In this document: positions 6,590 through 52,337 of the stretch, in pieces
Layout: each line of letters begins with the position of its first letter
How positions within the stretch are numbered: the first letter of the stretch is position 1
IMG/VR virus record: IMGVR_UViG_3300042471_000228
Location: 1-64,000 of that record
Source of the DNA: a virus
Length of the DNA: 64,000 nt
Reading direction: 5' to 3' (one strand)
Notes under the pieces: model-generated
Seen by the model: only the letters and a program-made list of their open reading frames with translations
What the model was told of the DNA's origin: nothing
The model's database searches: none
Program-made: the position numbers and the translations under genes

Positions 6590-9500
6590 TCATTTGAAAC
6601 GATTTTGTGCACTTTCAAAGTTTTTAAGTGCGTTAACCGGATCAATGATTTTACCTGATAATCCCACAGATTTTAACAAGTAGTTAAGAGTTTTGTATTC
6701 TCCTTCTTGTTGCCACTCATATGGTCCAACTGCACGTTTGTATCGTGCACTAGGATCTTGTAACAATAACTGAGTGATTGCTTGTAAGGTTTTACCCATA
6801 TTAACAACCGTACTACTAACTGCTACAGAATCTAGCTTTAACATGTTGATATAATCATCATATCCAAACATAGGTGTCATAGCTTCAAGCTCGTTCATGG
6901 TTGTTTTACCCAGGAACAACGCTTGATTCTCTAACCAACCAGATGCATTAAACTCAAATGCAGAGTCTGCTACAAGGAATCCGGGTAATGGACCAGAATT
7001 CTCTCTGAGTTTAGCAAAACGATCTTCATCGTCATCATCGTAATCAAACAATAGACCTATTAAACCTGCACCTAATAGTATGATACCCATCTCGGTCATC
7101 ACCTTTTTAGCTGCTGCTATTTCCCTAGGAGTCATATATTTAAAGTCTGCACCTAGTGTAGTAATACCGCGTCTTAGTGTGTCAAGTGCTTGAACATAGT
7201 AACCAATAGTCATGTCATTTGCTTGTACATCCCAACGTGCTCCTGGATTTTTCCAGTTACCACGGAATCCCCATCTTGACATGAACTGACGAGTAAACCA
7301 CGTCTTCATATAAGCTACCATTCTATATAGAAGGTATCTATTTGCCATAGGTTGATCCATCTTTGAGAGTGATCCGTTCAAGTTTTTGTTAGCAGCTTGA
7401 ACTTTATTACGTACCTCTAAGAATTTCTTACCACCTACGTCCCAAGATTTGTCAATACCTTCTTTAAGAGTTAGTTGACCGTCTTTGATTTCCCAAGCGT
7501 CTATGTACGCTATCTCTCTAGATACACCATTGATAGTCTGATTAACCTTTTGGTGATTCATCATTCCACCAAATAACTGTAGTACCGAGTTTAGCTGTGT
7601 CCAAGATCTAAAGTTTGTAAACCATTGCATGTTAGCAACGTCACGTGTTAATGTGCGAGTAGCGCTTTCAGAAAACTTGCGTCCAGCATCTTTATCAAAA
7701 CGTGTTGCTTCAGGATCAAACATCTCTACTAACTGAACATTAAGTGACTTCGGTCCGAACTTATATATTTCAAATGATATCTGACTTGTTGCAAATTGTG
7801 CCCAATATGCACCTTTAGAAAGACTTGTTAGATCTAAATTATCACCACCAGCTGCAGCTATAACTGACTGGAACTGAGCGTTGAACGCGTTCTTCAATGC
7901 TGATGCTGCATCAAATGCAAAGAATGCAAACGATGACATCTTCATCAAGTTACCTGCGAGTTTGTTTGCCCATGCTAGATTTTCAGTAACACCGACTAGT
8001 TGTTTACCTTCTAGCTCCCGTTCAATCATAGCATTGATTACTTGTGACCTAACAGAACGTCCTTTACGTGTAGCAAAATTTGTAATACCTCTTGTCAAGT
8101 AGTCTTGTTTGTTAGCCGTCAACATATCTTTGATACCACCGACTTCATCATTAACTACTTTTTGGATTGCTCTTACATTAGGATTAATCTCAATAAGTTT
8201 CTTCTGACGCTCTGCTGATAACATATATCTCATCATACCCATGATGGTATCTTCAGATGTTTCTTCGATACTCAAGTCCGCTCTACCCATAATAGGGATA
8301 CCTGATACTTGAGAGTCAAACATATCAAGTGTTACATATGTTACCTGGTTTTCTGCATTATATCCTTCTTCATAATCATCCGCAGCTTTTGTAAATGATG
8401 CTTTGAAGTTTTTAATCATTGATGTTACTTTATCTTTAGCTTCACCAGATACTATTGATTCATAGTTATCTTTTCTAAATCTAGGTAAATAAACACCAAG
8501 TCTTGCATTCTTATTAAGACCTTCTTGATTCTGCTGATGATATAGATGTAAATTATTCAATAGATCAAACTGAGTTCTATTAGTTGTTTTTAATCTATAG
8601 TACTCATCATTTCTATACTTACTATCTGGTTTTGGTAACCATCTTCCTTGCTCATCGACTGTAGCTAGACTAACGTCTCCCATTTCAAGCGCTTCTTGGA
8701 ATGTAACACGTTTTGTTCTGTACTCATCTTTAAGCTGACGTCTCCAAAACTTGTTAGTTGGGACACCTGGAATTTGTTCTATTACGTTTCCTGCATCATC
8801 ATATAGATCTGTCTTCTCGTAGTACTCCTCACTATTAGGTCTTGTTACACTCCAAGCACTTGATCTCTTGTAAGATGTTTTTTCACTACCCTTGTTAGGA
8901 CCATACTCATATACAAAAGTTCTCTTTTGGTGATTTGCTGAGAACCATTTTTCAAACTCAGGACTCTCCGCAAATAGACTCTCTAGAAAAGGTATATCAT
9001 CTAATAGAGTATTTATGTTAGTACTATCAAATTCTCCTACACCCATTCTATTTCTCAAAGTACTTGGTTTGATACCAGTTCCGTCTGCTGCTGTTTTGAT
9101 AAATGAATTTACTTTAGTAATATACTGCTTAGTTGCAGTTCTACTTCTCAAAGCATTCAATTTCAAAAGTATATCAGAGACTGCTTCTTTAATTGTAGGA
9201 TCTCCTTCAGCACTTCCCATTGCATCTGTAATCTCATCATAGTATGCAGTATCGTCTGGATTAAGATCACGGAACTCATTGTAAAGTTCTGTGTACTGCT
9301 CCATGTCCATACTAAGAGGATCAAACTTTGATTCAACATACTCAGTTGCTTTTCTTGCAAACTCTTTTCTGAATTCTTCTTGTTCTTCAGTGATTCCTGT
9401 GTATGCTGCTAGTGATGCTCTTGCTGATGCAATTTTTTGATCAAGTTCTAAGATACGATCAAGTTTAGCTTCGCTCATAATCAACGCATCTGGTTGACCA

Positions 9501-12500
9501 TCTTCATCACGGAATGCACTCATTTGATCATTAAGTTCCTTAAACAATTCATCAAGATCCATTTGAGAAACCATATCTACAGGCATAGATCCTTTTAGAA
9601 CTTTTAATTGTTCAATAAGATCTTGAACGTCTTGCCAGAACTGAGGTTTAATTTTAACCTTTGTGTTGTTCTCAATCCACTCATTTCTCTTTTCATCAAA
9701 CTCTTTACCAGTGATACCTTGTACTCTAAGTTGTTCTTCATAAGATCTTAGTGATCCTTGGAACATACCTTTGATAGGAACCCACTCATAGAATTCTCTT
9801 GATGCTTCTCTGTGCTCGAGCAATCTTTTTGTAATCTCATAATCATCTGTACCCGGTTGTTTCAATGTACCATCGGGATATGAGTATGCATATAACTCAG
9901 CATATTCTTGCCAGTGTAAATCTCTCTCAGCTTGAAACTCACTGTCATACAAATCTGTTTTTTGTTTGATTGTAGCATCTAAGTTTCTAAGTTTGTTTAG
10001 AATATTCTGTCTAGCAATGTATGCTTTCTTACCAATTTCATCTTTTGTAAACAAAGCTTCTGATGCAAATACTCTAGAGTCATAATCGTTATAGAACTGT
10101 TCGTGTAATAACTTATTCAACTCTGCACGTAGTGCATCTGTTTCAGTGCTATCACCAGTCTCTACACGTTTCTTTTCTGCTTCTCGTATTTGATCTTGTA
10201 GTTTTCCGATCTCTGCTCTCCATCCTTTTAAGTGATGCAAGAACGCATGCCTTTCTCTTTCTACATAGTTACCTTCAGAATCATAGATAGGTTCTTTCTC
10301 TTTATAGGTAACCATCTTATGTAGAGCTTCGTAATCTTTTAATCCAAGTCCTGCATTTCGGAGCATTGGTTCAAGACTCATCAAAATACTATTCTGTCTT
10401 TGTTGTGCTTTAACTAGTACTTCACTAATATTATCGTTGATATATTTAGCTAAACCAAATACAACAGGATCCTGGATATTCATAAATGACTCTAACCATG
10501 CACTAATAGCATGTGTGTCACCACGTTGTCCAGATAACCACTCTCTAAGATCACCCTCATTCAAAGAAGCTTGTTTGTATTCTTCTTTATATCTATTTAG
10601 TAATCTTTCAGGTGCTCCTTTCTTCTCAAGTTCAGCAATAATCTTTTCGTAGTAGTCTTTTACTTTTGCTGTAAGAGGTTGTAGTGTTTCTTTCAACAAC
10701 GTAATCGATCCTTCAAAGCTCATCTGAACATCTAATTTCTTAGCAGTATTCAATAAGCTTTCTATGTTTCCTATTACGTCTACAACTGGACCAGTTACAA
10801 CATCCTCTCTAGTCATCTCACCTTTGATCCTTTCTATAATCTTAGACCAGTCTTCTACTAATTGATTATAATAGTAAAACTTCTTTACGTTCTCTGGACT
10901 ACTTTCTTCTTTCAACAGTTCTTTCATATGAAGCACCATCTTGGAGCTCATATACTTTATTCTATATAGAGAATTTACAAGAGCGGTTGCTCTCTGTGTT
11001 TCGTACTCTAGTCTTTGCGCAGCGTCTAGCATTCCATCCTCAAGTTCTTTTTGATACTGACTTAGGTTGCTAATAATACTTTTGTAATCAGACTCATCGT
11101 ATCCAGACTTAAGAATTTCTGCCATCTCTTTAAGATTGCGATTCTTTACAAGTCTATCTATGTGCTCTCTTGATATACGTGTTAGATCAGAGATCATTGA
11201 CTTGATTGCAATAGCTCCCGAGTCTGTGTTTCCGATATTCAAGAATGTATCTATCTCTTCTTTGACACGTCTCTCTTCCGCAATTACATCATCCTGACTT
11301 ACGGCTTCTATATCAAACGCAATTTGATCTGCGGATAATAACATCTTACTAAGATCATCTATTGTAGTATCTACATCTAGATTAGATACTTCTACTCTCT
11401 TACCAAAGTATTTTCTAAATGCTTGTTTAATTGCATATAGGATTCTACCAACTAAAGATTTGAACGCTTTGTTTTCTGTTGCCTCTAGTGCTCCTGTCAT
11501 TTTAAGTTTTGCAGCGCGAGTCAATGCTCTTACGATTGCTTCTTCTTTAAACAACGGATCTTCTTTACCATAGAGTTTCTCAGTTGTATCTAATACTTTT
11601 TGACCTTCTGCTGAAAGACTCAAGTCATTAAATAACTTCTCAAATAGTTCAGGGTTCTCTTGTTGGATTGCTCTAACAAACGGGTGACTAAATTCGTGAA
11701 TAGCTGTTTCTAGATTCAACTGTTCAGCTACTAAATATACTTTACCACCTACATAAAAACCTGCTTGATCGGTAAATGGTTTACCTGCATTCTCTAATAT
11801 TGTTCTAGCTTCATCAGCAGTTACAAACTCATATGGAACACTAAGTCTACTAGATAACTGTTGCACCATAGCTTGAACAAGACCATTTGCTTTTCTTACA
11901 TCTGTCTCTATAGGTGTGAGTTCTATCTTACTGGAATATGTACTAAGACCAGGTGTAGTCTCAATCATATCTGCGATCATATCATCTAAAGGTTGCTCTT
12001 GAGTAGTTTCAGAAGTTGAAACATCCTCCATAGCATAGTCTATAGATGATTCATAGTTAACGTGTCTAAATCCTGCATATCCAAAATTATAATTATCTTG
12101 TGATTGCATGTAGGGTATAAATGCTTTCCAATCAATGAAGTCTTTATCTCGACCCATCTTTATTTTAGCAAGCATAATTTCTTTCCATAACTTAAAATAG
12201 TTATCATGCTCTTCTTGGAAAGGAGTAAGTCGTATAAAGAAATCTACTTGATAACCTGTACCTTTTATATATTCTCCTTTTTCATGAAAAACTATTTTGG
12301 TACCTTTTTGCTTAACCGGTTTTTTAGTTACAGGATCTTTTGCGTAGTAATTATATTCTTCTTCATGTGTACCACTTGAGTCATAGAATTCTCCGTCTAT
12401 TACACCCTGTACGGTGATTGATTCAAAGTTAGTATGTTCTTTTCCATAGAAACCATTTGTCATTCTAAATGACGGAAAGTTTTCTTCAAACTGTCTAAAC

Positions 12501-13612
12501 CAAGTAAACTGAGCTACATGGTTCATTGTATTCTTTGCAACTTGTGATAGACCTTTTAGTCCAGCAACATCTTCTCTCTCTACATATGCTGGGACAATCA
12601 TATTGATCTTATCTAGTATATGCATGTTTCTAGCATTACTGCTTTCTTCATACGGTACTACAAAATCTATATCATGTAAAGTTTCTTCTGCATTTCTAAA
12701 TACAGTTCCTGCTCTTCTTAAAGCTAATGATCCTGTCAAAACTAAACCTAATGATTTAGAAACATCCACAATGCTTTTTGCTTTCTCATCAGATTCAATT
12801 GTATCTTTATAATACTTTCTAATCTGATCATCTGCTAAACCGTAATCATAATACTCATAGTTTTGAGTAAGTACTTCATCAGCAATTGCTAAACCTAAAT
12901 TCTCAAGATCCGCTCTGCGTTCTTCATTTCCAATACCAAAATTGATATTCAACCAGTTCTTTATTGCTCTTATGAATTTTTCCCAAAGAGTAAAATCTTC
13001 ACTTGTCCATTTAGTATCAAGATTCTTTTTAAAGTCTGTAGGATTCTTGTAGTAAGATAATAGATTCTCCTTTAAGAAATCTATAATAACACGATCTTTT
13101 ACATTGTCTTTTCTTTCTGCATCATTAAACTTAGCTTTACCCAATCGTTTATTAAGTATAGCTCTATGGAAAGAACTTCTTTCTTTATACTTACTCCACT
13201 TACTAACTAGATATCTTAATTCTGATTTAATTTTATTGTTCTGTTTACCTAGCATCATATATGCAAAGTATGCTACTTCAGGAAGAATAGATTCTCCTTC
13301 ATTATATACAATTCTTTTGGTAATTAAATCAGATGCTGTAAAGGCATCAATACCCAAGTCGTCTTTTATAGATTGGTATTCTTCAACACTTATATTAAAG
13401 TCTTTTAGGAAACCTTCCACTAAGATCTTTTCTAAATCCGCTATCTTACTGTTTACAACAGGTTTAGATTTTAGAAAGTTCTTTTCTGCTAAAACTACTT
13501 TAGGGTCACGAATGGTTTCTCCGTTCTCAATATAATCTCTGTAAGCTTCAAATTCACCTACAGCTTTAACTAATTTGTTCCATTCTGGTCCCCCTGGACA
13601 TGCGTTTATCAT
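6590..13612 (-). CDS. Giant ejection/polyvalent protein (2340 aa) with nucleotidyltransferase-like and zincin domains
   Basis: LTGSLAL...DIDF and GRDKD.ID motifs; HEFSH...EE; long helical remainder; adjacent to vRNAP as in crAss-like triplets. Confidence 0.75.
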   Translation of the reverse strand: MINACPGGPEWNKLVKAVGEFEAYRDYIENGETIRDPKVVLAEKNFLKSKPVVNSKIADLEKILVEGFLKDFNISVEEYQSIKDDLGIDAFTASDLITKRIVYNEGESILPEVAYFAYMMLGKQNNKIKSELRYLVSKWSKYKERSSFHRAILNKRLGKAKFNDAERKDNVKDRVIIDFLKENLLSYYKNPTDFKKNLDTKWTSEDFTLWEKFIRAIKNWLNINFGIGNEERRADLENLGLAIADEVLTQNYEYYDYGLADDQIRKYYKDTIESDEKAKSIVDVSKSLGLVLTGSLALRRAGTVFRNAEETLHDIDFVVPYEESSNARNMHILDKINMIVPAYVEREDVAGLKGLSQVAKNTMNHVAQFTWFRQFEENFPSFRMTNGFYGKEHTNFESITVQGVIDGEFYDSSGTHEEEYNYYAKDPVTKKPVKQKGTKIVFHEKGEYIKGTGYQVDFFIRLTPFQEEHDNYFKLWKEIMLAKIKMGRDKDFIDWKAFIPYMQSQDNYNFGYAGFRHVNYESSIDYAMEDVSTSETTQEQPLDDMIADMIETTPGLSTYSSKIELTPIETDVRKANGLVQAMVQQLSSRLSVPYEFVTADEARTILENAGKPFTDQAGFYVGGKVYLVAEQLNLETAIHEFSHPFVRAIQQENPELFEKLFNDLSLSAEGQKVLDTTEKLYGKEDPLFKEEAIVRALTRAAKLKMTGALEATENKAFKSLVGRILYAIKQAFRKYFGKRVEVSNLDVDTTIDDLSKMLLSADQIAFDIEAVSQDDVIAEERRVKEEIDTFLNIGNTDSGAIAIKSMISDLTRISREHIDRLVKNRNLKEMAEILKSGYDESDYKSIISNLSQYQKELEDGMLDAAQRLEYETQRATALVNSLYRIKYMSSKMVLHMKELLKEESSPENVKKFYYYNQLVEDWSKIIERIKGEMTREDVVTGPVVDVIGNIESLLNTAKKLDVQMSFEGSITLLKETLQPLTAKVKDYYEKIIAELEKKGAPERLLNRYKEEYKQASLNEGDLREWLSGQRGDTHAISAWLESFMNIQDPVVFGLAKYINDNISEVLVKAQQRQNSILMSLEPMLRNAGLGLKDYEALHKMVTYKEKEPIYDSEGNYVERERHAFLHHLKGWRAEIGKLQDQIREAEKKRVETGDSTETDALRAELNKLLHEQFYNDYDSRVFASEALFTKDEIGKKAYIARQNILNKLRNLDATIKQKTDLYDSEFQAERDLHWQEYAELYAYSYPDGTLKQPGTDDYEITKRLLEHREASREFYEWVPIKGMFQGSLRSYEEQLRVQGITGKEFDEKRNEWIENNTKVKIKPQFWQDVQDLIEQLKVLKGSMPVDMVSQMDLDELFKELNDQMSAFRDEDGQPDALIMSEAKLDRILELDQKIASARASLAAYTGITEEQEEFRKEFARKATEYVESKFDPLSMDMEQYTELYNEFRDLNPDDTAYYDEITDAMGSAEGDPTIKEAVSDILLKLNALRSRTATKQYITKVNSFIKTAADGTGIKPSTLRNRMGVGEFDSTNINTLLDDIPFLESLFAESPEFEKWFSANHQKRTFVYEYGPNKGSEKTSYKRSSAWSVTRPNSEEYYEKTDLYDDAGNVIEQIPGVPTNKFWRRQLKDEYRTKRVTFQEALEMGDVSLATVDEQGRWLPKPDSKYRNDEYYRLKTTNRTQFDLLNNLHLYHQQNQEGLNKNARLGVYLPRFRKDNYESIVSGEAKDKVTSMIKNFKASFTKAADDYEEGYNAENQVTYVTLDMFDSQVSGIPIMGRADLSIEETSEDTIMGMMRYMLSAERQKKLIEINPNVRAIQKVVNDEVGGIKDMLTANKQDYLTRGITNFATRKGRSVRSQVINAMIERELEGKQLVGVTENLAWANKLAGNLMKMSSFAFFAFDAASALKNAFNAQFQSVIAAAGGDNLDLTSLSKGAYWAQFATSQISFEIYKFGPKSLNVQLVEMFDPEATRFDKDAGRKFSESATRTLTRDVANMQWFTNFRSWTQLNSVLQLFGGMMNHQKVNQTINGVSREIAYIDAWEIKDGQLTLKEGIDKSWDVGGKKFLEVRNKVQAANKNLNGSLSKMDQPMANRYLLYRMVAYMKTWFTRQFMSRWGFRGNWKNPGARWDVQANDMTIGYYVQALDTLRRGITTLGADFKYMTPREIAAAKKVMTEMGIILLGAGLIGLLFDYDDDDEDRFAKLRENSGPLPGFLVADSAFEFNASGWLENQALFLGKTTMNELEAMTPMFGYDDYINMLKLDSVAVSSTVVNMGKTLQAITQLLLQDPSARYKRAVGPYEWQQEGEYKTLNYLLKSVGLSGKIIDPVNALKNFESAQNRFK

Positions 13613-16600
13613 TATGAAATACCTTTACATTTATTAATATAATCACTAACTTCTTTGTCTGTTTTGCGCTGGATATCTTTTGACTTATAGTATTCTTGTA
13701 TGAATTCTAATCCAGTACCCATTCCTCCAAGTTCTTCTGTATTAAAGTTCTTTGTTATCAATTCAAACTTAGGATTTCTGTATCCGAAGTTCTCAAGAAG
13801 TTGTCTAGACAAATATAAGTACAAGTCTGTATTCCTCTCAGCATTTTCTCTTAAAGAAATACTACCCATGTTATTTCTATAGAACCCTAATAACTTAGCA
13901 CCTATACCATTTGATGGAAATACAACTGTCTTACCACTTTCTTTTAAAGCAACTAGTTCTTTAATATACTGATCTATGAGATCTTTAGCTACCGCATTTC
14001 CTTTAGGATTTGGTAGAGAACCATCTTTCTTCACTACAGGTATTGCGAAACTGTTTCCAGTAGCTAATCCTGCACGGAATGCTTGTTGATCTATCTGAGT
14101 AGGTGTTGTTGGTCTATCTCCTACAATAACATTACCTTCTGAGTCTAGTTTAACAGTAGGATATACATCTTCGAATACATATACTGCTTCAGGATTAGCA
14201 TCGAACATAGCTTGTACTGTCTCAGGAGTAACTTTGTATTCTGTTTTAGTATAGATTTGTTCGTCTCTTCCTGTAAAACTCTTAGAAGTTTCAAACATGC
14301 TTTCGTTATACTGATATACAGCTTCTATCTCACCAGTGTCTTCGTTAAGAAATACACTACTAGTCTTTACTTTAGACTGAGATACTACTATAGGTATAGT
14401 ACTCTTTGCAACTGTTGGGGCAGCCGCTGCATAGTTTGTATATACAAACCTTCCACGAGTTCTATAACTTCTAATAAACTTCTCACTAAAGTCAGAAAGT
14501 TCTTTTTCAATATCAGATCCATCCGCAATCTTCTTTACATCAGATGCCATATATGCTGCAAGATCTTTGTTATCAAAGATTGACATCATATATAGATTAG
14601 ATAGTTTATTGTTTCCTGCTTGCAAATACGCTATGGTTTTCATCTTAGCAAAGAAGTTACTTATATACAAGTTCTCTTCGTCATTCTTTACTTTTTGAAC
14701 AGCAGGATTCGCTAAGTCATTCATCTGATTCTTATACGATGTAAGAATAGTTCCATCAGAATTACGATCATTTAGTTTAAAGAAGCGCATGGTTCCGCTA
14801 GATGCTACACCAATGATATCAAGAACCGGATATGATTTTGCAAGATCAGGATGTGACTCTAGAATATCAGTAAACTTAGCAGTAGCATTTATAATACCGT
14901 TTCCTACAGTATAACTAGCATCAAATAGAGCTCCGTCTATATACAAATTCTCGAGAGCTTTGTTTCTAATAAACTCTTCATAGCGAGCTGGTATATCTGT
15001 ATTTAATTGTCTCTGAGTCAAGAACTTAATAAACTCAAAATTACTTGTTATAGTCTCATAAGGTATTGCTGCGCGTAAGTATTCTCTTTCAAGAACAAAC
15101 TTATAATACATAGGTATTTGTTTGTCTTTAGATAATCTTGAGAATGTAGACTCTGGGAGTTTCGCTAGCTTTACTTGACCACCGTATCCATCTTTAGAGA
15201 ACGCACGTGACTTAAAGTCTTTTATAATCTGTGCTTTATCTACTAAGAACTCTCCTGTTTCTGGATCTAAAAATGCTCCGTACTTTAAGAAAGCTTGTTC
15301 TTTAATAGGTACTGTGTCATTAAGTTCTATAGATCTATACGTGTCTTTGCTAGAATCAAATGTATATAACTTATTTTGGAACAAGTATAATATGAAGTCG
15401 TCATTGAATTCTTTAGCAAAGTCTTCTATCTCCTCTGGATCTAAAGACTGATCTGATATAACAGCATCTAATGTATTATTTAATTGAGTGTTTGCTCTTA
15501 CTGGAAGTGCTGTTGCAATAGCTGCTCTTAGCAAGTCAGTAGTTCTGAAACTCTTTAGTACTGTTTTATCAAGAAGTCTTTCGATAACATCTTTTGAAAA
15601 CGCACCGTCTAAAATTTTATACAAACCTCTTTCTTGTTTCTGTGCATCAAAGTAACTAGTGTTCTTTAATGTATCAAAACGAATTGCCATCTTCAACTCA
15701 GTAAGTTTGCTCGCCATATAGATTATCTCTACAAAGTGCGCAAACTGTTGTTCGTTAAAAGCTGCATTAGATTTCTTTAGATTTTCTTTTAGATTCTCAA
15801 ATGTAAATATTGGTTCTCTATCAACATCTTGTTCAAAATCTAAGAAGCTATTTCTTAGATTAACCAACATCTGAGGAGTATTGATAAACGTATTAGGATC
15901 TCCTTCTTTGTTTACAGGAAACACACCGGGCATTTCTTTATCTAAGATAACTTGTATGATAGCTTGTCTCTTCGCAAAGTTTGTATTAGATAATTCTATC
16001 TCAGGATTCAATACAGAATAAGGACTAGAGTATTCTCTGAAGTATCTCAAATACTCTCTTACGTATGGTTGTGCTAACATCAATGCTGCTACTTTTACAG
16101 GAACACCTGCGAGCATCATAAATTCAAACTCTGGTTCTAATTGCTTAATAGCATTGATAGAATACACCCAGTCTTTCTTAGCAACGTCCAAGTATCCGTT
16201 CATCAATTCTGATACAACGTCTCTTACGTACTTATCAAGATCCGCATCTTTGAAGCTAGAGAAATCTATTTCTTTTTGACCATTAATTATTTTAGAGTTA
16301 TGTGGTACTAATAGTTCTTGAGTTAGAGTATACGTAACTGGTTTTCTCTTTACAAGTTTAGTCTCTTCTCTTACAGGACTCATTGTGGTTCCTGAAAGTG
16401 TAGCTAAAGCATGGAAAGTATTACCAGTTGCTAACATACCAACACCTTGCTTACCATTATTAAGTGCAGAAGCTTTGACAATGTTATAACGGTTTTCGAA
16501 GATCTTAGTTGGAGACATCTTCTTACCATTTAACGGATTAGTCTTAGTAGACTTACTATTGTATTCTCTGTTATATGGATCTAAAGCATCAACAATACTC

Positions 16601-19600
16601 TTATCATCAATTACTGGATCTTCTGTATAGATATTAGTACCATTAGGTCTAACAAGGTTGATATAGTTATCAGGTCTGCTGAGAATGTTTTTCATAGAAT
16701 CCATTACATCCTGTTGGAATGCTTTAGGATTGTATGAGTTTTGCTCTCTGTTTAACTCTCTAAGTTTTTGTTTGAGCGGTGCTATCTCGTTTATATACTG
16801 ATCAAACTCACCTTTTCTAGTCTCGAGTATGTCTTTCTCTAGTTGATCATATATTTCATCAATTTGTTCTTTAGCACTATTAATACGACTATAATACTTC
16901 TCACTAGCTCCACCTACATAATAGTTGTTAGTCCATTGAGACAAGAAATCTTTATAAGCATCTACCTGTTCTTGTTCAAGTTTTGTAATCTCTTCTTGAA
17001 ACTCGGGCTTCAGATACTGTTTGATATACTTCTTACGTAATTCCTTAATCTCTTTTAAGGTCTCTGCTTTCTGCTCAAGAATTGTGTTAAGAAGTTTTTT
17101 AGTTGCTTTTGGTTTCTCAATCTCAATAACACCTTCGTTATCTACGATACCGGGAACCATTGTAATTAACTTATCGATATCAAAGTCACCACCTGATTTA
17201 GCTACAATCTCTAAAGGTAGGATCATAATATTACCTGCTATCTCTGGTAAGAACTCAAACACTTCCATGAACTCCATAGAGTTAGGACCTTGAGTTGGGA
17301 TACGTGCTCCTATAAGAGTAACCATCTTACGATGATCTCCTTTATCTAACCACGTATCTTCTTTAAGCATTGCGTTCAAGCGATCAAGTGTTCCGATAGC
17401 TTTTCCGTCTAAGTGTTCTAGTTTCAAAAGATTCTTAAACTTACCGTGCAAGCTTATCTTAATCTTCATTGCAGAAGCGCTCTTTTTATCACCATTAAAT
17501 TTATAGAATGGTAATCCATCAGAACCGTATTTGATCAAATCATCTACAGTAGGTTTAGAGAACTTCTCAAATCCTACACCTGAACCTTGAATATATTGCT
17601 CTCCGTATACAGGTTGTTCATTAATTCTTTTGTTTACAATAGAACTAATAATCTTTTCAATCTTACCGGGATCAGATGACAGATCCAATGGATATACAAA
17701 TTTACCATCATCACCTATAGTAATGAAATCTATATCTTGTTCTGCTAGATCTTGTGCTGTTAAACTATTTTGAATATACTCAACAAACTTCTGTAGATTA
17801 ATAGAAGGTTCTCCTTTACGTCTTGATTTAGGATCGTTGTAACCAAGTTCCATTTTCAATTCGTTCTCGGCAACTTTCTGCATCTTATCTATATTAGATA
17901 AATAAGATTTTACCAACGGACTGTCTTCAGTCAAACCAATAGTAATCAGTTTACGAATCTGTGTTGGGAATTTGATTTTCTCCTTAAACTTATCCTTTGT
18001 AACCAACTGTTCTTTAAGATAGTTTACGAAAATAAAATTCTTTGTAAAGTTAAACTCATCACTTTCCCATTTAGGAGAAAGATCATCTGTATAGAATCCG
18101 TCAAGTTCTTTCTCAGAACCTAGAGATGCTACTTTAGAACCAGAGTGAGTTACCGCATATGCTAATCCTTGAGATATAAGTTTATTATGTAATGACTCTA
18201 AACGTGTTTGTTTAATCACACTAGGAATAAGTGGAATCAAAGAGTATTTATGAAACGCATTAGCTGCAAAGTTCTGTAATCTAATTGGTCCAGAGTACTG
18301 TAGTTTCTTTACAGGCATAAATGCTTTTAGTGCTACAGCATCATCCACTTGTTCTCCATTAAGAATCTTATTGTATAGTTCTTCTTTATATGGTGACCAG
18401 TTATTAAAACGTAACTCAAGTGCTCTATACGCATCGAATGTAATCCATGATTGTGCATCTGCAACTTTCATGTTCTTATACTCATTGAAATCACTCTCAG
18501 CTAAACCTGCTTTCTTAGCAGCTGCAATCATCTCATTTAAGTATACAGATGTTACTCTAGGATCTTCTACTACAGCAACTGGTATAATAGTAGATTGACT
18601 TGCCATTGTATTTGTTGGCTCAGGATATCCTGAATTCTTAAACCATGGTGACTCGTGATATCTACCTTTGTTTTTTTCAATGAAAGTATTCATTGATCTA
18701 TCTGTTCTACCAATTCTACCAGTAGCAAAGAAACCGGGAATACGCTTCATGTGTTCTTCTTTGTCGTGGAAGAACAAAGCAGGATCTCCGTAAGTTAAAG
18801 TACCTAACTCAATCCTGTGTATAAAACTGTTGTATGTAAATGCTTCGGATGTTACTTTCAATAATGTATCATTATTTGAGTTTGTCATACCAAGTCTACT
18901 CTTTACAACATCAAAGAAACCAGTAGCTTTAGTAACACCATAGTTTTTTAACTGAGTATAATCTTCTAAAGCTAACTTATCAAAGTAGTCATTCAGATCT
19001 TTAATAATTCTTTCTTGTAGTTCAGGTCTCTCAACTAATAAAGCTTGAAACTCTTCTACAGTATTTACGTCAAGTCCTTTTAAGGTTTCTTTTAGATCAT
19101 TTTTAAGGATGTCATCAAATATTACAAACTCAGAACCCGCGCTTTGATATGTTATCTGCTTACCAGGAGAACCCCCGGTAAGAATAATGTCACTAGCATT
19201 TTCTCCAACAGCATTCTTTGTATTTACTTTCTTGATTCTCTCAAGTTCTGATGCTACGTATCCAAGTAAGATTTTATTAGCTTGTTCTCTTCCTGCGTTT
19301 CCTGAGAAATTTTTAGGATTAACATAGTAAAGAGTCTTACCTGCAACAGCTCTAACAATATACGCAGATGTTTTATCAGCATGTCTAAATGCTTCTGATG
19401 CACCGTGTAATATATTTAACATGTAATCTCTAAGATATGCAGTCTGCTCATCGGATGCAGATGACTTCATACCTTTTATGATACCAACTATTTCGTTATC
19501 GATAACATCAACAGCTTGTGTTCCTAATAGAGACTCTACTGACAATTCTATTTTCTGACCATCTGCTGTATTTTTATATCCTAAGTTATTACCAAATAAT

Positions 19601-22600
19601 AACTTAAATAATCTAGATGTCTTTACAAATGGATTTCTATCAGTGCTGTAGTGCTCTGTCTCGGGATTATTTATTAACTCTGCAAAAGTGTTTGCGTTAT
19701 TAATATAGTGTATCTGATTACCTGCAGTACTAGGATTGTTCATCTCAGACTGAGGATCACCATTTACGTTAGTAAACATGTAACCAGCATTGAATCCTGA
19801 GAACTTACTTTCTAGTTCTAATAATCTACTCCATAGTTTATTTTGATCATAGAATAGATGATTGGGATTTTCTGGAGATAAACCTACAACTTGTTTCTTA
19901 GTTGCAACTTTGCTAACAACTAAAGCATCAAACATATCACGTAACAAACCTTTGTTAAGCTCGTTAACAATACGAAGGTTATCTGTAATATCAATACCCA
20001 ATGACTGTAAGAACTTCAGAGGTTGTGCGCGAACTGTCTGAATATCAGGAAAGTCTTCGTACAGCTTAGCAAGATCTAGAACATATTCATTAGTCTTTCT
20101 ATCTTTAGTGATGTAGTCTGATTGAACACGTCCTGTTTGGAAACGTTGGTTCAACATTCTTCCGAATGCTTTATCTGCAGAGTCTGATTCTCCTACAACA
20201 ACTCGTACTCCATCAAATGAATCTTCTTCAGTAATCGCTGAATGTTTTTGTACAGTTACTTGTACTCCAGATTGTTTATCTAATCTAGCAGCAAAGAAGA
20301 ATTCACCCCAAAGTCTTTGAGTAATAAAGTTATTTGCTGAATCAGGATTACCTAGTTTAGATACTAATTGCTTTAAGAATTCAAACTTATAGTTTGTTTT
20401 ACCATTCTTAGTTTTAGTATTTGAAGATAGTATAAGATTGTCATACATCTCTTCAGGTGTAAGAGTATTGTTAGTACTAGATATGATTACTGCAAATGCT
20501 GTATCAAAAGGTACAGTTTGCCTAAATCCTAAATCATTATATACAAATCCATCAGCTGTCTTTTCAAATAATGAGTTTAGTATAAATACCATACTATCAC
20601 CCATTCTATCTTTTGCAGAAAACTCAGTACCACTTCCAGCAAACATACCTTCTCTATCCGCCATCAAATCAGGATCTATATCAGATTGACCAGCTACAGT
20701 CATATCTTCATCCATGATTTTAGCATCTAGTTTGATATCAAAGAATCCAGTTCTTTCATTATAGTACTTTAAGAATCCTTGATTAGGTTTATCTACATCA
20801 AATTGACTAGTCACCCACTCTAAGGTTTGTATTGATCTCTCAAGTTTTTCTTTCTCAAATCCTACAGCGTTATCACTCTTTAGTTTTAACTCAGTAATTT
20901 TATTAATGAATTTTAATTTTGCTTCTGTTAGAATAGCATTCTTAATCTTCTCATCAGAGAATACACCTAGTGTAAATTTATTAGTTCCTGTTTTAGCATT
21001 GAACTCATCAATTGTACTAGATATAGCATCTGTCAATCCATCGACTGCCATTAGTGATGCTGTTACATTCAAAGTCTTAATGGGACTAGTGCTATCAGCT
21101 AATGCTGGTATACCGCTATTAAGTCTATTAAACTGAATGTTAGATTGATCGAAACTATAGTTCGTTAAGTCACCTGCTCTAAGTTTTTGGAATACTTCTC
21201 CAATACGCATACCAGGTGTTAACTGGTCTTCTGGTGTAGAGAATCCAAATAATGCTTTAATAGCATCTAGTATAATTCTAAATATAGACTTCTGCTTTGC
21301 TGTCTTCGGTGTATACTTACCTAATGAGAACTCTCTGAACTTTTCAGCAAGATGTTCTTCTGCGTATAATATATGCTCTGGTTTATTAAAATCTAAATCA
21401 GAACTCTTCATGGTTTTCCAACCATTGTCATAATACGATATAGTTTCACCAAGAGACTTGAGGTCATTATATAAATCTAATTTCTGTTTACCAGTTAAGA
21501 ACAACTGTGTAAACCCGTGCCATGCTTCATGGTAAAGATCTGAGTAATCAGATCCTTGGAACAAAGTAATTCCTGCTCTTGTCCATGTAGCTCTAACATC
21601 ACCATTACTATTAGCAATGTTAAACATTGTAGTATAAGGTATGACCTCAGATAGTTTCTTTCTAACCACTTTACCTGTAGAGTCAGTAAAACTAATCTCA
21701 GTGTTTTCAAACCAAGTCTTAGCTTCAGCAACTTGTGTAGGTGTTGCTACTATATCAAAACCAGTCATGTCTCTTCTTTCAAGAAGATTACTTAATTCTG
21801 ATATATCTGTGTCAGTTAATCCTTCTAACTTAACTGTCTTGTTTTTTTGTTTCTCTTCTTGTTCTTTTTTAAATGCAGCTATCTCAGCATCTGTCATTTT
21901 TTTAGAAGCGATGATTGAACTCTCGATAGGTATAGTGAATCCTATGTAAGCATTTTCTTCTCTGATCTCTCCTTTGACCACTTTAACGCCAGACGTTGCG
22001 TTCTTAAAAACCCAATCTTTATAAGGACTCTGTTCTATAGATATATCTAATCCTTCTTTTGTAGGAGTTAACTTAAAATCATAGATATTACCATCTATGT
22101 TTTTAGCACTATAATAAAGTTTATTTTTGTAGGTAACGGTTTCATTATTACCAACTGTGTCTTTAATCTCTCTAGTTAAGAAATCTACAATCTGTTTCTT
22201 AGCTACTTCTTTATCCGCACTTACTGGCTCTCCATTAATACGTACAGTGTTTGTAGCAAGATCATAAGTAAAGTTCTTGCCGATATCTAGTTTTATATAC
22301 TGAGATATAATCTGACCTTTTGACTTAGGAGATAGTAATTCATTTTCATAGAATACATCATTAAGTAATAAGTCAGCAGTTCTTTCAGCAAGATCTGTAG
22401 GAAGCTCATTCATTACAAAAGGAACAGGTTCTGATACACCTGGATACATGAAAGCAGTCTTTACCTCACCTTTTGCTTCAGTAGAAGTTATAATAATGGG
22501 ATCGAATGCAGACGCATCCATTAATTCTGATAGAGGTTTTTTATTATTAAACTCTCTATACAAGAACCCATGAGTCGCGTAGTTAAAGTTTAATTTCAAT

Positions 22601-23640
22601 CTTTTTTTGAAATTACCCTTTGTAGTTAGATACTCCATCATTGTATATAGAGTATCGTACTCGTTGTTTATTTGATCACGTAATGCTTCTTCTGTAATAG
22701 TAATACCTTGTCTTTGTTTACTTTTAATAATAGAACCTAGTGGTTGAATCTTACTATTCTTAATACTTTCGTTTATATCAAATATGCGCTTACCATTCTC
22801 GACAGTAAAACTTGGTATAGTTCTTAAAGGAAAATAAATTATATCTCCTGTGTCATCAGTTAGATTATAATCATTATCAAAGTATACAAGCTCTCCTTCA
22901 GGATTAGTAAATACAATATACATTTGCTTAGATATTCTAAGCTTGATATTTTCTTTGTCTCTCTCATATGGGTATAGTTTATCTTGTGGTAAACTGTATC
23001 CCGGAGTAAGCATGATTTGAATTTTCTGACCTCTGTAGAAGATAGTACCATCTTCATCGGGTAACATCTGTGTGTTAAGTAACTTTATAAAGTTATAATA
23101 CCAACGTAGGTCACGCTCTTCTCTTACTTCTTCCCCTGATGTAGTTAATACGTTGTCGGGTACTTGTACGAATCCTCCTTCAGATGCAATATCATTTACT
23201 GTATCTTTTATTCTAGGTTGAATAGAAACAACACTATTTACTTCTTTAACAGTGTCTTGTACTTTAGGTGTTAGAGTACTTCTGTAATCGTTTAAGTACT
23301 TAGTTACATTATCTATGGACTTATTAAAAGATATAATAACATCTTCTAGTGATCCTGGATCTAGTAACTTCTTCTCTCTTAAGGGTACGCGGATGCTTTC
23401 ATAAACACTCTTAGCTAATTCAATAGAACTAGGAGTAAGTCTAGCAACAGCTAATGCTTTTTGTTGGTCTCCAGTTTTCTCTAGCACCTCATTAAAGATA
23501 CCATTTATAAACTTTGGTAGGTCGACAACAGAATTCTTCTCAATTTTTTGAGCAAGCATTCCTGCTACTTTTCTATCAATTTTTGAGATATCTTCTTTAG
23601 ATAAACTCCATTCCCCTGAAGGATCACAAATTATACTCAT
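13612..23640 (-). CDS. Virion-packaged single-chain two-barrel RNA polymerase (crAss-like), with zincin domain
   Basis: GARIPTQG (17290-17304 core) and GGDFDIDKL (DFDID 17173-17187), matching phi14:2 gp66-type active site; ADAQSW; HEAWH at 21517-21531. Confidence 0.88.
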   Translation of the reverse strand: MSIICDPSGEWSLSKEDISKIDRKVAGMLAQKIEKNSVVDLPKFINGIFNEVLEKTGDQQKALAVARLTPSSIELAKSVYESIRVPLREKKLLDPGSLEDVIISFNKSIDNVTKYLNDYRSTLTPKVQDTVKEVNSVVSIQPRIKDTVNDIASEGGFVQVPDNVLTTSGEEVREERDLRWYYNFIKLLNTQMLPDEDGTIFYRGQKIQIMLTPGYSLPQDKLYPYERDKENIKLRISKQMYIVFTNPEGELVYFDNDYNLTDDTGDIIYFPLRTIPSFTVENGKRIFDINESIKNSKIQPLGSIIKSKQRQGITITEEALRDQINNEYDTLYTMMEYLTTKGNFKKRLKLNFNYATHGFLYREFNNKKPLSELMDASAFDPIIITSTEAKGEVKTAFMYPGVSEPVPFVMNELPTDLAERTADLLLNDVFYENELLSPKSKGQIISQYIKLDIGKNFTYDLATNTVRINGEPVSADKEVAKKQIVDFLTREIKDTVGNNETVTYKNKLYYSAKNIDGNIYDFKLTPTKEGLDISIEQSPYKDWVFKNATSGVKVVKGEIREENAYIGFTIPIESSIIASKKMTDAEIAAFKKEQEEKQKNKTVKLEGLTDTDISELSNLLERRDMTGFDIVATPTQVAEAKTWFENTEISFTDSTGKVVRKKLSEVIPYTTMFNIANSNGDVRATWTRAGITLFQGSDYSDLYHEAWHGFTQLFLTGKQKLDLYNDLKSLGETISYYDNGWKTMKSSDLDFNKPEHILYAEEHLAEKFREFSLGKYTPKTAKQKSIFRIILDAIKALFGFSTPEDQLTPGMRIGEVFQKLRAGDLTNYSFDQSNIQFNRLNSGIPALADSTSPIKTLNVTASLMAVDGLTDAISSTIDEFNAKTGTNKFTLGVFSDEKIKNAILTEAKLKFINKITELKLKSDNAVGFEKEKLERSIQTLEWVTSQFDVDKPNQGFLKYYNERTGFFDIKLDAKIMDEDMTVAGQSDIDPDLMADREGMFAGSGTEFSAKDRMGDSMVFILNSLFEKTADGFVYNDLGFRQTVPFDTAFAVIISSTNNTLTPEEMYDNLILSSNTKTKNGKTNYKFEFLKQLVSKLGNPDSANNFITQRLWGEFFFAARLDKQSGVQVTVQKHSAITEEDSFDGVRVVVGESDSADKAFGRMLNQRFQTGRVQSDYITKDRKTNEYVLDLAKLYEDFPDIQTVRAQPLKFLQSLGIDITDNLRIVNELNKGLLRDMFDALVVSKVATKKQVVGLSPENPNHLFYDQNKLWSRLLELESKFSGFNAGYMFTNVNGDPQSEMNNPSTAGNQIHYINNANTFAELINNPETEHYSTDRNPFVKTSRLFKLLFGNNLGYKNTADGQKIELSVESLLGTQAVDVIDNEIVGIIKGMKSSASDEQTAYLRDYMLNILHGASEAFRHADKTSAYIVRAVAGKTLYYVNPKNFSGNAGREQANKILLGYVASELERIKKVNTKNAVGENASDIILTGGSPGKQITYQSAGSEFVIFDDILKNDLKETLKGLDVNTVEEFQALLVERPELQERIIKDLNDYFDKLALEDYTQLKNYGVTKATGFFDVVKSRLGMTNSNNDTLLKVTSEAFTYNSFIHRIELGTLTYGDPALFFHDKEEHMKRIPGFFATGRIGRTDRSMNTFIEKNKGRYHESPWFKNSGYPEPTNTMASQSTIIPVAVVEDPRVTSVYLNEMIAAAKKAGLAESDFNEYKNMKVADAQSWITFDAYRALELRFNNWSPYKEELYNKILNGEQVDDAVALKAFMPVKKLQYSGPIRLQNFAANAFHKYSLIPLIPSVIKQTRLESLHNKLISQGLAYAVTHSGSKVASLGSEKELDGFYTDDLSPKWESDEFNFTKNFIFVNYLKEQLVTKDKFKEKIKFPTQIRKLITIGLTEDSPLVKSYLSNIDKMQKVAENELKMELGYNDPKSRRKGEPSINLQKFVEYIQNSLTAQDLAEQDIDFITIGDDGKFVYPLDLSSDPGKIEKIISSIVNKRINEQPVYGEQYIQGSGVGFEKFSKPTVDDLIKYGSDGLPFYKFNGDKKSASAMKIKISLHGKFKNLLKLEHLDGKAIGTLDRLNAMLKEDTWLDKGDHRKMVTLIGARIPTQGPNSMEFMEVFEFLPEIAGNIMILPLEIVAKSGGDFDIDKLITMVPGIVDNEGVIEIEKPKATKKLLNTILEQKAETLKEIKELRKKYIKQYLKPEFQEEITKLEQEQVDAYKDFLSQWTNNYYVGGASEKYYSRINSAKEQIDEIYDQLEKDILETRKGEFDQYINEIAPLKQKLRELNREQNSYNPKAFQQDVMDSMKNILSRPDNYINLVRPNGTNIYTEDPVIDDKSIVDALDPYNREYNSKSTKTNPLNGKKMSPTKIFENRYNIVKASALNNGKQGVGMLATGNTFHALATLSGTTMSPVREETKLVKRKPVTYTLTQELLVPHNSKIINGQKEIDFSSFKDADLDKYVRDVVSELMNGYLDVAKKDWVYSINAIKQLEPEFEFMMLAGVPVKVAALMLAQPYVREYLRYFREYSSPYSVLNPEIELSNTNFAKRQAIIQVILDKEMPGVFPVNKEGDPNTFINTPQMLVNLRNSFLDFEQDVDREPIFTFENLKENLKKSNAAFNEQQFAHFVEIIYMASKLTELKMAIRFDTLKNTSYFDAQKQERGLYKILDGAFSKDVIERLLDKTVLKSFRTTDLLRAAIATALPVRANTQLNNTLDAVISDQSLDPEEIEDFAKEFNDDFILYLFQNKLYTFDSSKDTYRSIELNDTVPIKEQAFLKYGAFLDPETGEFLVDKAQIIKDFKSRAFSKDGYGGQVKLAKLPESTFSRLSKDKQIPMYYKFVLEREYLRAAIPYETITSNFEFIKFLTQRQLNTDIPARYEEFIRNKALENLYIDGALFDASYTVGNGIINATAKFTDILESHPDLAKSYPVLDIIGVASSGTMRFFKLNDRNSDGTILTSYKNQMNDLANPAVQKVKNDEENLYISNFFAKMKTIAYLQAGNNKLSNLYMMSIFDNKDLAAYMASDVKKIADGSDIEKELSDFSEKFIRSYRTRGRFVYTNYAAAAPTVAKSTIPIVVSQSKVKTSSVFLNEDTGEIEAVYQYNESMFETSKSFTGRDEQIYTKTEYKVTPETVQAMFDANPEAVYVFEDVYPTVKLDSEGNVIVGDRPTTPTQIDQQAFRAGLATGNSFAIPVVKKDGSLPNPKGNAVAKDLIDQYIKELVALKESGKTVVFPSNGIGAKLLGFYRNNMGSISLRENAERNTDLYLYLSRQLLENFGYRNPKFELITKNFNTEELGGMGTGLEFIQEYYKSKDIQRKTDKEVSDYINKCKGIS

Positions 23641-51431: not shown

Positions 51432-52337
51432 TTAGACAGCGTTATTTATATTAAACTGAGTAGGGTGAGAATATGATTTGAACATGTCATAGTACTTAGA
51501 GTACATTGCTTTTCTATTCATCGCCCATACTTTTTGCATTTCGGAGAAGTTCGGTGTATTCACAATACTTAATGCATTGTTTCTTGCTGCACGAAGTTCC
51601 GCATTAACCAACTGAAATTGATTACTGACTGTAGGATTACCATCCATAAGCATATTCTCTAATATACGTTTCTTAAGAGCATACTCATAGAATTCATTTA
51701 TCATCGGATGATCCACAACTAGCAAGTTACCATCATCGTCTTCCATATTACCTTGGTAGTTAATATATAAGTTTCCGGTTTCAATATTCGTAAATATAAA
51801 ACCATCTTTGATATAACCTTCATCTTTTCCTTTATAATTAAGATCTGCACAATCACAATTGATCATGTATGAATTCTTAAATCTTAAAGGTGTTAGCATA
51901 TCGTAAGTGCGAGTTTCTGTCCCTATTACTTGAATCAAACTATATGTAGTACCACATTGAGTTAGACAAGTTGATTCTGGAGGAAGTGTTGTTCCTGAAC
52001 AAAGATTTGATTCAACCCAAGGTTTATAACTAGGCACTACTTCTTGAATATTAGTACCTTGTGGTACTTGTGTAGTAATACTATATGATCCGCAGATTAA
52101 TGCAAAGTTCATTACGTGAAAGTTCTCAGGAAGTCTTGCTCGATAGTGTTCAATCTCAAGGACTTTCTCCATGGTCTTTTCTACACGCAATCCTAGATCA
52201 TAATTAACCTTCATGGCAATCTTAATAAGTTGCGCAGGTTCAATAGCACCATCTGTAGCAATACTTCTTAGATCCGTTCTAACGTCTTCTAATAAAGATT
52301 CAAATGTTCTATATTTGAGAGTGTAATTGTAGTTCAT
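51432..52337 (-). CDS. Tail ring/tubular protein
   Basis: YI.TN..TG.L.I.Y.G..DDDG..LV.D pattern of crAss-like ring proteins; synteny. Confidence 0.6.
   Translation of the reverse strand: MNYNYTLKYRTFESLLEDVRTDLRSIATDGAIEPAQLIKIAMKVNYDLGLRVEKTMEKVLEIEHYRARLPENFHVMNFALICGSYSITTQVPQGTNIQEVVPSYKPWVESNLCSGTTLPPESTCLTQCGTTYSLIQVIGTETRTYDMLTPLRFKNSYMINCDCADLNYKGKDEGYIKDGFIFTNIETGNLYINYQGNMEDDDGNLLVVDHPMINEFYEYALKKRILENMLMDGNPTVSNQFQLVNAELRAARNNALSIVNTPNFSEMQKVWAMNRKAMYSKYYDMFKSYSHPTQFNINNAV

Follow-up and report, generated by a model that had tools for sequence, protein, structure and literature searches.

The proteins that a phage injects decide the first minutes of infection. In crAss-like phages the virion RNA polymerase is, to our knowledge, the only injected protein with a known activity. 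A giant late gene in a 64,000-nucleotide stretch of viral DNA (positions 1 to 64,000 of IMG/VR record IMGVR_UViG_3300042471_000228, the whole of which is called the window here) raises the question of whether a second enzyme could be delivered in the same way, and what it would do in the host. The gene (6590..13612, minus strand, as are all of its parts described below) is an open reading frame (ORF) whose translation, P0002, is 2340 amino acids (aa) long. An earlier note, made from the sequence alone, had read part of this protein as a nucleotidyltransferase (NTase) of the DNA polymerase beta (Pol-beta) superfamily, delivered with the virion RNA polymerase at infection and possibly serving host takeover or anti-defence. 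We found that aa 250–525 (12038..12865), delimited by conservation and an AlphaFold2 (AF2) model, are a discrete domain with the Pol-beta fold both in that model and in structural comparisons. The best explanation of the whole, which we consider likely although well short of certain, is a competent Pol-beta NTase belonging to a family of its own and carried in an exchangeable cassette, which would probably be packaged and ejected as an effector.

Motifs, conservation and predicted fold of the domain

The ORF translation reads LVLTG294S295LALRRAGTVFRNAEETLH313D314ID316FVV, QVD457FF and AK483IKMGR488DK490D491FID494W over the candidate active site. Motif I is G294-S295 (12728..12733), both residues of which are invariant in 71 close and 61 diverse sequences, and motif II is H313-D314-I315-D316 (12665..12676), of which H and both D residues are invariant. 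The positions that the earlier note gave for GS (12728-12733) and DIDF (12662-12673) agree with this translation, as does its count of 18 residues from GS to DxD. Further along, D457 in QVDFF (12242..12244) is an invariant candidate for the third carboxylate, and motifs III and IV (12131..12166) comprise the invariant residues K483, R488 and the pentad K490-D491-F-I-D494.

Conservation was assessed at two depths. A word-seeded search with query residues 1–560 returned 77 proteins, 71 of which had a full copy of residues 255–525 at 35–88% identity. In these close copies G294, S295, R299, G302, R306, E310, H313, D314, D316, D457, F459, K483, R488, K490, D491, D494 and P500 were 100% conserved. 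Alignment A2 contained 61 diverse sequences at ~23–63% identity, including subfamilies at only ~23–30%, and here conservation of at least 90% was found for G294, S295, G302, R306, H313, D314, D316, D457, F459, W476, K483, R488, K490, D491, D494 and P500. Because the motifs are kept at this level down to ~23% identity in the 61-sequence alignment, they are not due to chance, and the conserved positions, judged from sequence, match the pattern of an enzyme active site. The segment leading from strand 2 to the VDFF strand varied in length, and a ~45-residue hairpin was missing in many subfamilies. A second subfamily, represented by metagenome loci L030–L035, is ~220 aa long without the hairpin insert and reads GLILTGSISASEQG..HDIDWVVP ... 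VSVDFF ... KLKYGRAKDLLDY. Downstream of the domain in these loci was either an ART-like H-Y-E region (ART, ADP-ribosyltransferase) or an EELAHHLH motif, depending on the contig.

AF2 supplied with the 61-row alignment gave a confident model of aa 250–525 (mean predicted local distance difference test score, pLDDT, 88.2; predicted template modelling score, pTM, 0.85), and AF2 run from the single sequence gave no usable model (pLDDT 32). In domain numbering, to which 249 is added to obtain protein numbering (G45 is G294), the model begins with helix 27–38, strand 42–44, G45-S46 opening helix 45–52, and a short strand 55–58. These are followed by strand 65–70 with D65 and D67, a helical insert at 72–129, strands between 134 and 194, strand 205–212 with D208, and C-terminal helices 227–248 that carry K234, R239, K241-D242 and D245. 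The residues L-T-G294-S295 thus follow strand 42–44 as the hG[GS] signature at the start of a helix, D314-I-D316-F supplies the [DE]h[DE]h signature on strand 65–70, and the spacer between them is made of helix 45–52 plus the extra strand 55–58. In the model, the order of elements is that of the Pol-beta core (Aravind and Koonin 1999, as summarised in PMC5512222), and the motif residues lie on the canonical secondary-structure elements. The alpha-beta NTase fold, whose absence the earlier note had named as fatal to its reading, is present.

Structural comparisons supported this assignment. When aligned independently to 48,161 PDB representatives, the model scored highest with LnuA (4wh5; score 8.2, 127 aa, 3.0 Å), with MenT1 (8an4; 7.8, 147 aa), TglT/MenT3 (6j7n; 7.6, 146 aa), ANT(2'') (4xje; 7.4, 140 aa), the H. 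pylori NTase (4ok0; 6.9, 144 aa) and TM1012 (2ewr; 6.8, 128 aa) behind it. Lower ranks held poly(A) polymerases, terminal uridylyltransferases, Pol X enzymes, CdnC and MenT4, and scattered among these were subunits of the complex-I 30-kDa type. A second structural comparison, seeded by Foldseek, had a Pol-beta NTase in 50 of 50 among the matches listed. Foldseek itself placed two JHP933 entries at the top (E 0.04, probability 0.8), but nothing in PDB or BFVD matched the model at E ≤ 1e-3, and the viral library added nothing.

Relation to the DUF1814 toxins

The earlier note had also likened the tail of the domain to AbiEii/DUF1814 enzymes. This family is defined by motifs I–II as hG[G/S]x15DhD, motif III as KLxAaxxR and the family-specific motif IV '+DxxD' (Dy et al. 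2014, PMC3985639). In AbiEii, mutation of any motif abolishes toxicity, and the motif IV change D192A lowers GTP binding (PMC3985639). MenT3, MenT1 and MenT4 add nucleotides to acceptor stems or 3' ends of transfer RNA (tRNA) (Cai et al. 2020, PMC7450476; Xu et al. 2023, PMC10435456), and D41, K137 and D152 are essential in MenT1 (PMC10435456). For comparison we used alignment A4, built from 24 AbiEii loci with PF08843 matches, all taken from genomes of a single bacterial phylum (locus L050 of genome G040 was left out). Its consensus is LKGG-x15-DLD ... AEK ... RxKDLYDL, with K145, D161 and D164 invariant. All four elements recur in the phage domain, and their order is unchanged. Its R.KD..D tail corresponds to RxKDLYDL in A4, and K490-D491-F-I-D494 is a '+DxxD' pentad that is invariant in the phage family. 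Motif III agrees in part, with an invariant A-K483 and R488, but the spacing is K-x4-R and the aromatic position is lacking. The earlier note had called the GS-to-DxD spacing atypical. It does exceed x15, yet a long spacer is itself typical of the AbiEii branch (GG-x15-DLD in A4; PMC3985639).

The likeness extends across the DUF1814 toxins that were compared, namely AbiEii of S. agalactiae and L. lactis, MenT1, MenT3 (TglT) and MenT4 of M. tuberculosis, and JHP933 of H. pylori (PDB 8an4/8an5, 6j7n/6j7p, 6y56, 4ok0/4o8s). Shared with these are a Pol-beta core that leads into helices at the C-terminal end, motif I as hG[GS], a long spacer ahead of DhD (x15 in AbiEii, x18 in the phage domain), a conserved Lys-Arg pair and the '+DxxD' pentad. 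There are differences as well. The phage domain has HDxD where DUF1814 has [ST]xDxD, and K-x4-R in place of KLxAaxxR. Its strand 2 is followed by an additional helical segment of ~60 aa, and this subfamily also has a beta-hairpin insert of ~45 aa. The domain has no antitoxin gene (AbiEi, MenA) and is internal to a 2340-aa ORF, and it is encoded by a phage, in contrast to the known members, which are toxins of host defence or of toxin-antitoxin systems.

Sequence libraries weigh against a close relationship. PF08843 did not match the protein, the domain or its 61 homologues at E ≤ 1, nor the six-frame translated genome at E ≤ 10, so that the likeness noted earlier holds for the tail and not for a family match. 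Comparison by hhalign of 19-row and 183-row domain alignments with the 24 AbiEii sequences gave a probability of ~1% and E 0.05; only motifs I–II were confidently aligned, and greedy extension was needed to bring the C-terminal motif into register. The domain had no significant match to profiles from Pfam, NCBIfam, PHROGs or PDB, and phmmer and hmmsearch of the domain and its alignments against PDB sequences returned nothing relevant. Weaker signals were seen with the PADLOC AbiEii model (E 0.009–0.03 over motifs I–II in 3 of 19 members) and, below the Pfam thresholds, with the DUF6036 NTase (3 of 61 members) and Polbeta (2 of 61). ESM Atlas held only unnamed viral clusters for the domain, one of them with 11% Poly_A_pol_cat. 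We therefore describe an uncatalogued family that is MenT/AbiEii-like by fold and motifs and probably distantly related to the DUF1814 enzymes; membership of DUF1814 itself is not demonstrated.

An exchangeable cassette in a giant late protein

A relative reveals the borders of the cassette, of which the domain forms the rear half. P0072 (1866 aa) consists of the counterparts of aa 1–49 (96% identical) and aa 528–2340 (80% identical) and has no cassette. Its junction reads ...NFLQS fused directly to VDLTMEDVSTSETTQE, and in comparison with it the cassette of the 2340-aa protein is bordered by NFL[KQ]S before and MEDVSTSETTQE after. Because this join is exact, aa 50–527 (12032..13465; 478 aa) are a precise insertion. 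The protein is thus built of an N-terminal head (aa 1–49, 13466..13612), the cassette, and a scaffold (aa 528–2340, 6590..12031) that starts with an acidic linker and is common to 119 orthologues with or without the cassette. Guanine-cytosine content was slightly lower over the cassette (0.295–0.33 at 11900–13400) than in the scaffold of the same gene (0.35–0.39).

The same slot is occupied by other enzymes in related phages. P0076 and P0077 have ~680 residues with HATPase_c domains at this place, and P0073 has an ADP-ribosyltransferase of the ART-PolyVal type. The head MINACPGGPEWNKLVKAVGEFEAYRDY.ENGETIR was retained at 60–96% identity in orthologues regardless of slot content, including those with HATPase or ART cassettes. 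It may serve as a signal for packaging or docking.

The front half of the cassette (aa 50–249, 12866..13465) accompanies the NTase domain in nearly every homologue, also where the pair is located at residues 1000–3100 of another giant. An identification of this half as LPD23 was considered, as an ESM Atlas look-alike cluster contained 18% LPD23, and was rejected; the LPD23 hidden Markov model matched nothing in the genome.

Distribution of the domain was patchy among orthologues, a point that the earlier note had suggested checking. A search with the C-terminal 841 residues identified the 119 scaffold orthologues, and only 11 of these carried the NTase domain; P0204 is an additional orthologue whose ORF call begins inside its domain copy. 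Beyond the scaffold, residues ~57–535 recur at 40–57% identity in ~60 otherwise unrelated giants, at positions from 37 to ~3100, and more distant copies reach residue ~4850 in proteins of 2000–5100 aa. Two copies in one giant were found in P0082, P0136, P0154 and P0179; the phage genome studied here has a single copy. In an exhaustive phmmer search of 1.84 billion cluster representatives, 141 were recovered at E ≤ 1e-3, and almost every one of these is 2000–5100 aa long. This is a new domain family for cataloguing, confined almost entirely to viral giants and without an entry in Pfam, NCBIfam or PHROGs.

No free-standing or cellular member was found, and the instances that could be placed on contigs were all in phage ORFs of ~2000 aa or more; the short matches P0155, P0161, P0170 and P0173 were not placed, and P0161 had no close relative among viral contigs. 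Relatives of another short match, P0198, sit in ORFs of 1998 and >2313 aa. When 185,579 prokaryote species, each represented by one genome, were scanned for the pattern, two matches only were obtained, on contigs of metagenome-assembled genomes labelled Dehalococcoidales and Dojkabacteria (L036 and L037). These are likely phage contigs binned with the assembled genomes.

This architecture resembles that of phage polyvalent proteins, which are encoded among late genes and usually contain a zincin peptidase (Iyer, Burroughs, Anand, de Souza and Aravind 2017, PMC5512222). Like them, the 2340-aa protein is giant and multidomain, lies among late or virion genes, has a candidate zincin-like HExxH module and belongs to a set in which several unrelated effector domains are shuffled: its homologues carry ART-PolyVal, PDDEXK, 2OG-Fe(II) oxygenase, LysM and HATPase domains. 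The Pol-beta NTases of the 2017 survey came only from conjugative elements of Firmicutes and were minimal four-strand, three-helix versions related to NTox45 and fused to ArdC-N (PMC5512222). The phage version is larger, MenT-like and found in phage-type proteins of crAss-like viruses, and it thereby extends that survey. We found no paper describing this domain in crAss-like cargo proteins. The exact slot borders (aa 49/50 and 527/528), together with the empty, ATPase and ART variants that occur in nature, amount to a natural experiment on cargo loading and on the roles of the cassettes.

Probable packaging, proposed activity and alternative explanations

The source phage belongs to a distant, uncultured crAss-like lineage. 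One ORF in the window (51432-52337) matched Pfam CrAss_Ring_1 (E 1.8e-10), and the lineage is placed at a distance because PHROGs and GenBank phages recognise almost nothing else in the window. The viral record is 92.5 kb long, with completeness estimated at 77%. Downstream of the tail genes is a run of giant ORFs on the minus strand (2340, 3342, 2499, 1053, 872, 819, 2258 and 1732 aa), and the 2340-aa gene is placed between the tail and cargo genes and the lysis region. It lies directly downstream of the 3342-aa gene (13612-23640, minus strand), whose product had no match in Pfam and PHROG searches. A motif scan of that product identified HEAWH at aa 704, RIPTQ at aa 2113 and DFDID at aa 2152. 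We take DFDID to be the catalytic signature of the virion RNA polymerase in crAss-like phages, and here the presence of the motif alone was checked. An NTase domain and DFDxD shared one polypeptide in P0101, P0111, P0124, P0125 and P0203 (3035–5115 aa), where a rough estimate gives ~0.7 such cases by chance; because the two occur together, the virion RNA polymerase may itself be the carrier of the cassette in some phages.

This arrangement, with tail genes followed by giant genes that include one with DFDID, is like that of the crassvirus cargo giants (PhiCrAss001 gp47, gp49 and gp50; phi14:2 gp66). Virions of PhiCrAss001 hold giant proteins associated with RNA polymerase as cargo (PMC10172136). 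Packaging and ejection of the 2340-aa protein are therefore probable by analogy, given the adjacent DFDID gene, the PhiCrAss001 cargo and the argument made for polyvalent proteins (PMC5512222). The case for the 2340-aa protein is one of gene position and architecture, since no homology could be detected between its scaffold and the cargo proteins of crAss-like phages in culture.

We propose that aa 250–525 are a catalytically competent Pol-beta superfamily NTase, whose nearest counterparts in fold and motifs are the DUF1814 toxins (MenT1/3/4, AbiEii, JHP933) and the small enzymes LnuA and ANT(2''). NTP-Mg2+ (NTP, nucleoside triphosphate) would be bound by G294-S295 together with the carboxylates of D314, D316 and D457. 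The rest of the nucleotide or acceptor site would be supplied by K483, R488 and K490-D491-x-x-D494 on the C-terminal helices, in the way of motifs III and IV of AbiEii and MenT. The nucleoside monophosphate would then be moved onto a hydroxyl of a host target. The cassette is inserted after the 49-aa head of a polyvalent-type scaffold encoded next to the putative virion RNA polymerase gene. As the slot is empty or filled by other enzymes in related phages, the NTase would be an accessory, exchangeable effector. It would probably be packaged in the virion and ejected ahead of or with the DNA, possibly being freed by the adjacent zincin-like module. A possible role in host takeover or anti-defence is suggested by where the gene lies, by its polyvalent architecture and by the sorts of cassette found in place of this one. 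With such a MenT/AbiEii-like enzyme in a cargo slot, there is a defined candidate, amenable to cloning, for manipulating the host early or countering its defences.

The target can be named only tentatively. By analogy with MenT the likeliest acceptor would be an RNA 3' end, for example the tRNA acceptor stem. Motif IV and the MenT matches favour this choice, to which we would nonetheless give less than even credence. The more specific proposal, that crAss-like phages turned a bacterial toxin NTase of MenT/AbiEii type into an injected slot effector, confined to giants and nucleotidylating host RNA 3' ends or a defence component, is speculative, and so, taken jointly with it, is an effect within the first seconds of infection. 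Against a tRNA target, a toxin that blocked tRNAs in general would harm translation of phage messages as well, and ARAGORN found no tRNA or transfer-messenger RNA genes in the 64-kb window.

An active NTase could instead serve the early programme of the phage, by adding tails or caps to the 3' ends of transcripts that the injected RNA polymerase makes early on, or by CCA-like repair of tRNA 3' ends trimmed by host defences. We consider this unlikely. The presence of the domain in only 11 of 119 orthologues, and the existence of phages whose scaffolds are 80–88% identical and which lack it or have an ATPase or ADP-ribosyltransferase in its place, form a patchy pattern that fits an accessory conflict function and not a core step. 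The best structural matches, moreover, were toxins and resistance enzymes, not RNA-tailing enzymes.

The matches to resistance enzymes raise the alternative of small-molecule nucleotidylation, in which a host metabolite or defence signal would be inactivated as LnuA and ANT(2'') inactivate their substrates. The LnuA lincosamide adenylyltransferase (4wh5), ANT(2'')-Ia (4xje) and TM1012 (2ewr/2fcl) are free-standing enzymes of resistance or of unknown function with small-molecule substrates. No sequence similarity of these to the phage domain was detected, and their genomic context is unrelated. The scores of LnuA and ANT(2'') are tied within 1 Z with those of MenT1 and TglT, and the invariant K...R-x-KDxxD tail has been described as DUF1814-specific (PMC3985639, PMC7450476). 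Two invariant residues of the spacer, R299 and R306, are basic and would, in addition, suit a polyanionic substrate. Taken together, these points make a small-molecule substrate improbable.

A protein target, as for the MNT antitoxins that AMPylate HEPN toxins, seems improbable to the same degree. Here the enzyme would neutralise a host defence protein or modify host machinery, and protein modification is indeed what Iyer et al. 2017 predicted for polyvalent Pol-beta NTases (PMC5512222); the slot of a close orthologue is also occupied by a protein-modifying ADP-ribosyltransferase. Minimal NTases of the MNT type were, however, not among the best structural matches, and the domain has a bi-partite, MenT-like build with motifs III and IV, which minimal NTases lack. 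That the domain is catalytically dead or purely structural, or its motif match coincidental, would agree with the failure of known-NTase sequence profiles to recognise it, but is very improbable given the confident fold prediction, the Pol-beta NTases in all 50 structural matches listed, and the invariance of all expected catalytic residues across subfamilies at ~23–30% identity while their surroundings and the two insertions vary freely.

Returning to the proposed effector, its release might involve the scaffold sequence HEFSH (aa 639–643, 11684..11698), a zincin-like HExxH motif identified by motif only. It lies ~110 aa past the cassette and is followed by LFKEEAIVRAL. Judged by this motif, the region may be a candidate processing peptidase of the polyvalent protein; the 2340-aa protein had no match to a Pfam peptidase. 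A tblastn search with the N-terminal 554 aa found no match in GenBank phages. The sole match of the scaffold in these phages was a 145-aa stretch around the HExxH motif, which is 30% identical to a sequence in Leptolyngbya phage Lbo-JY46 (E 3e-5).

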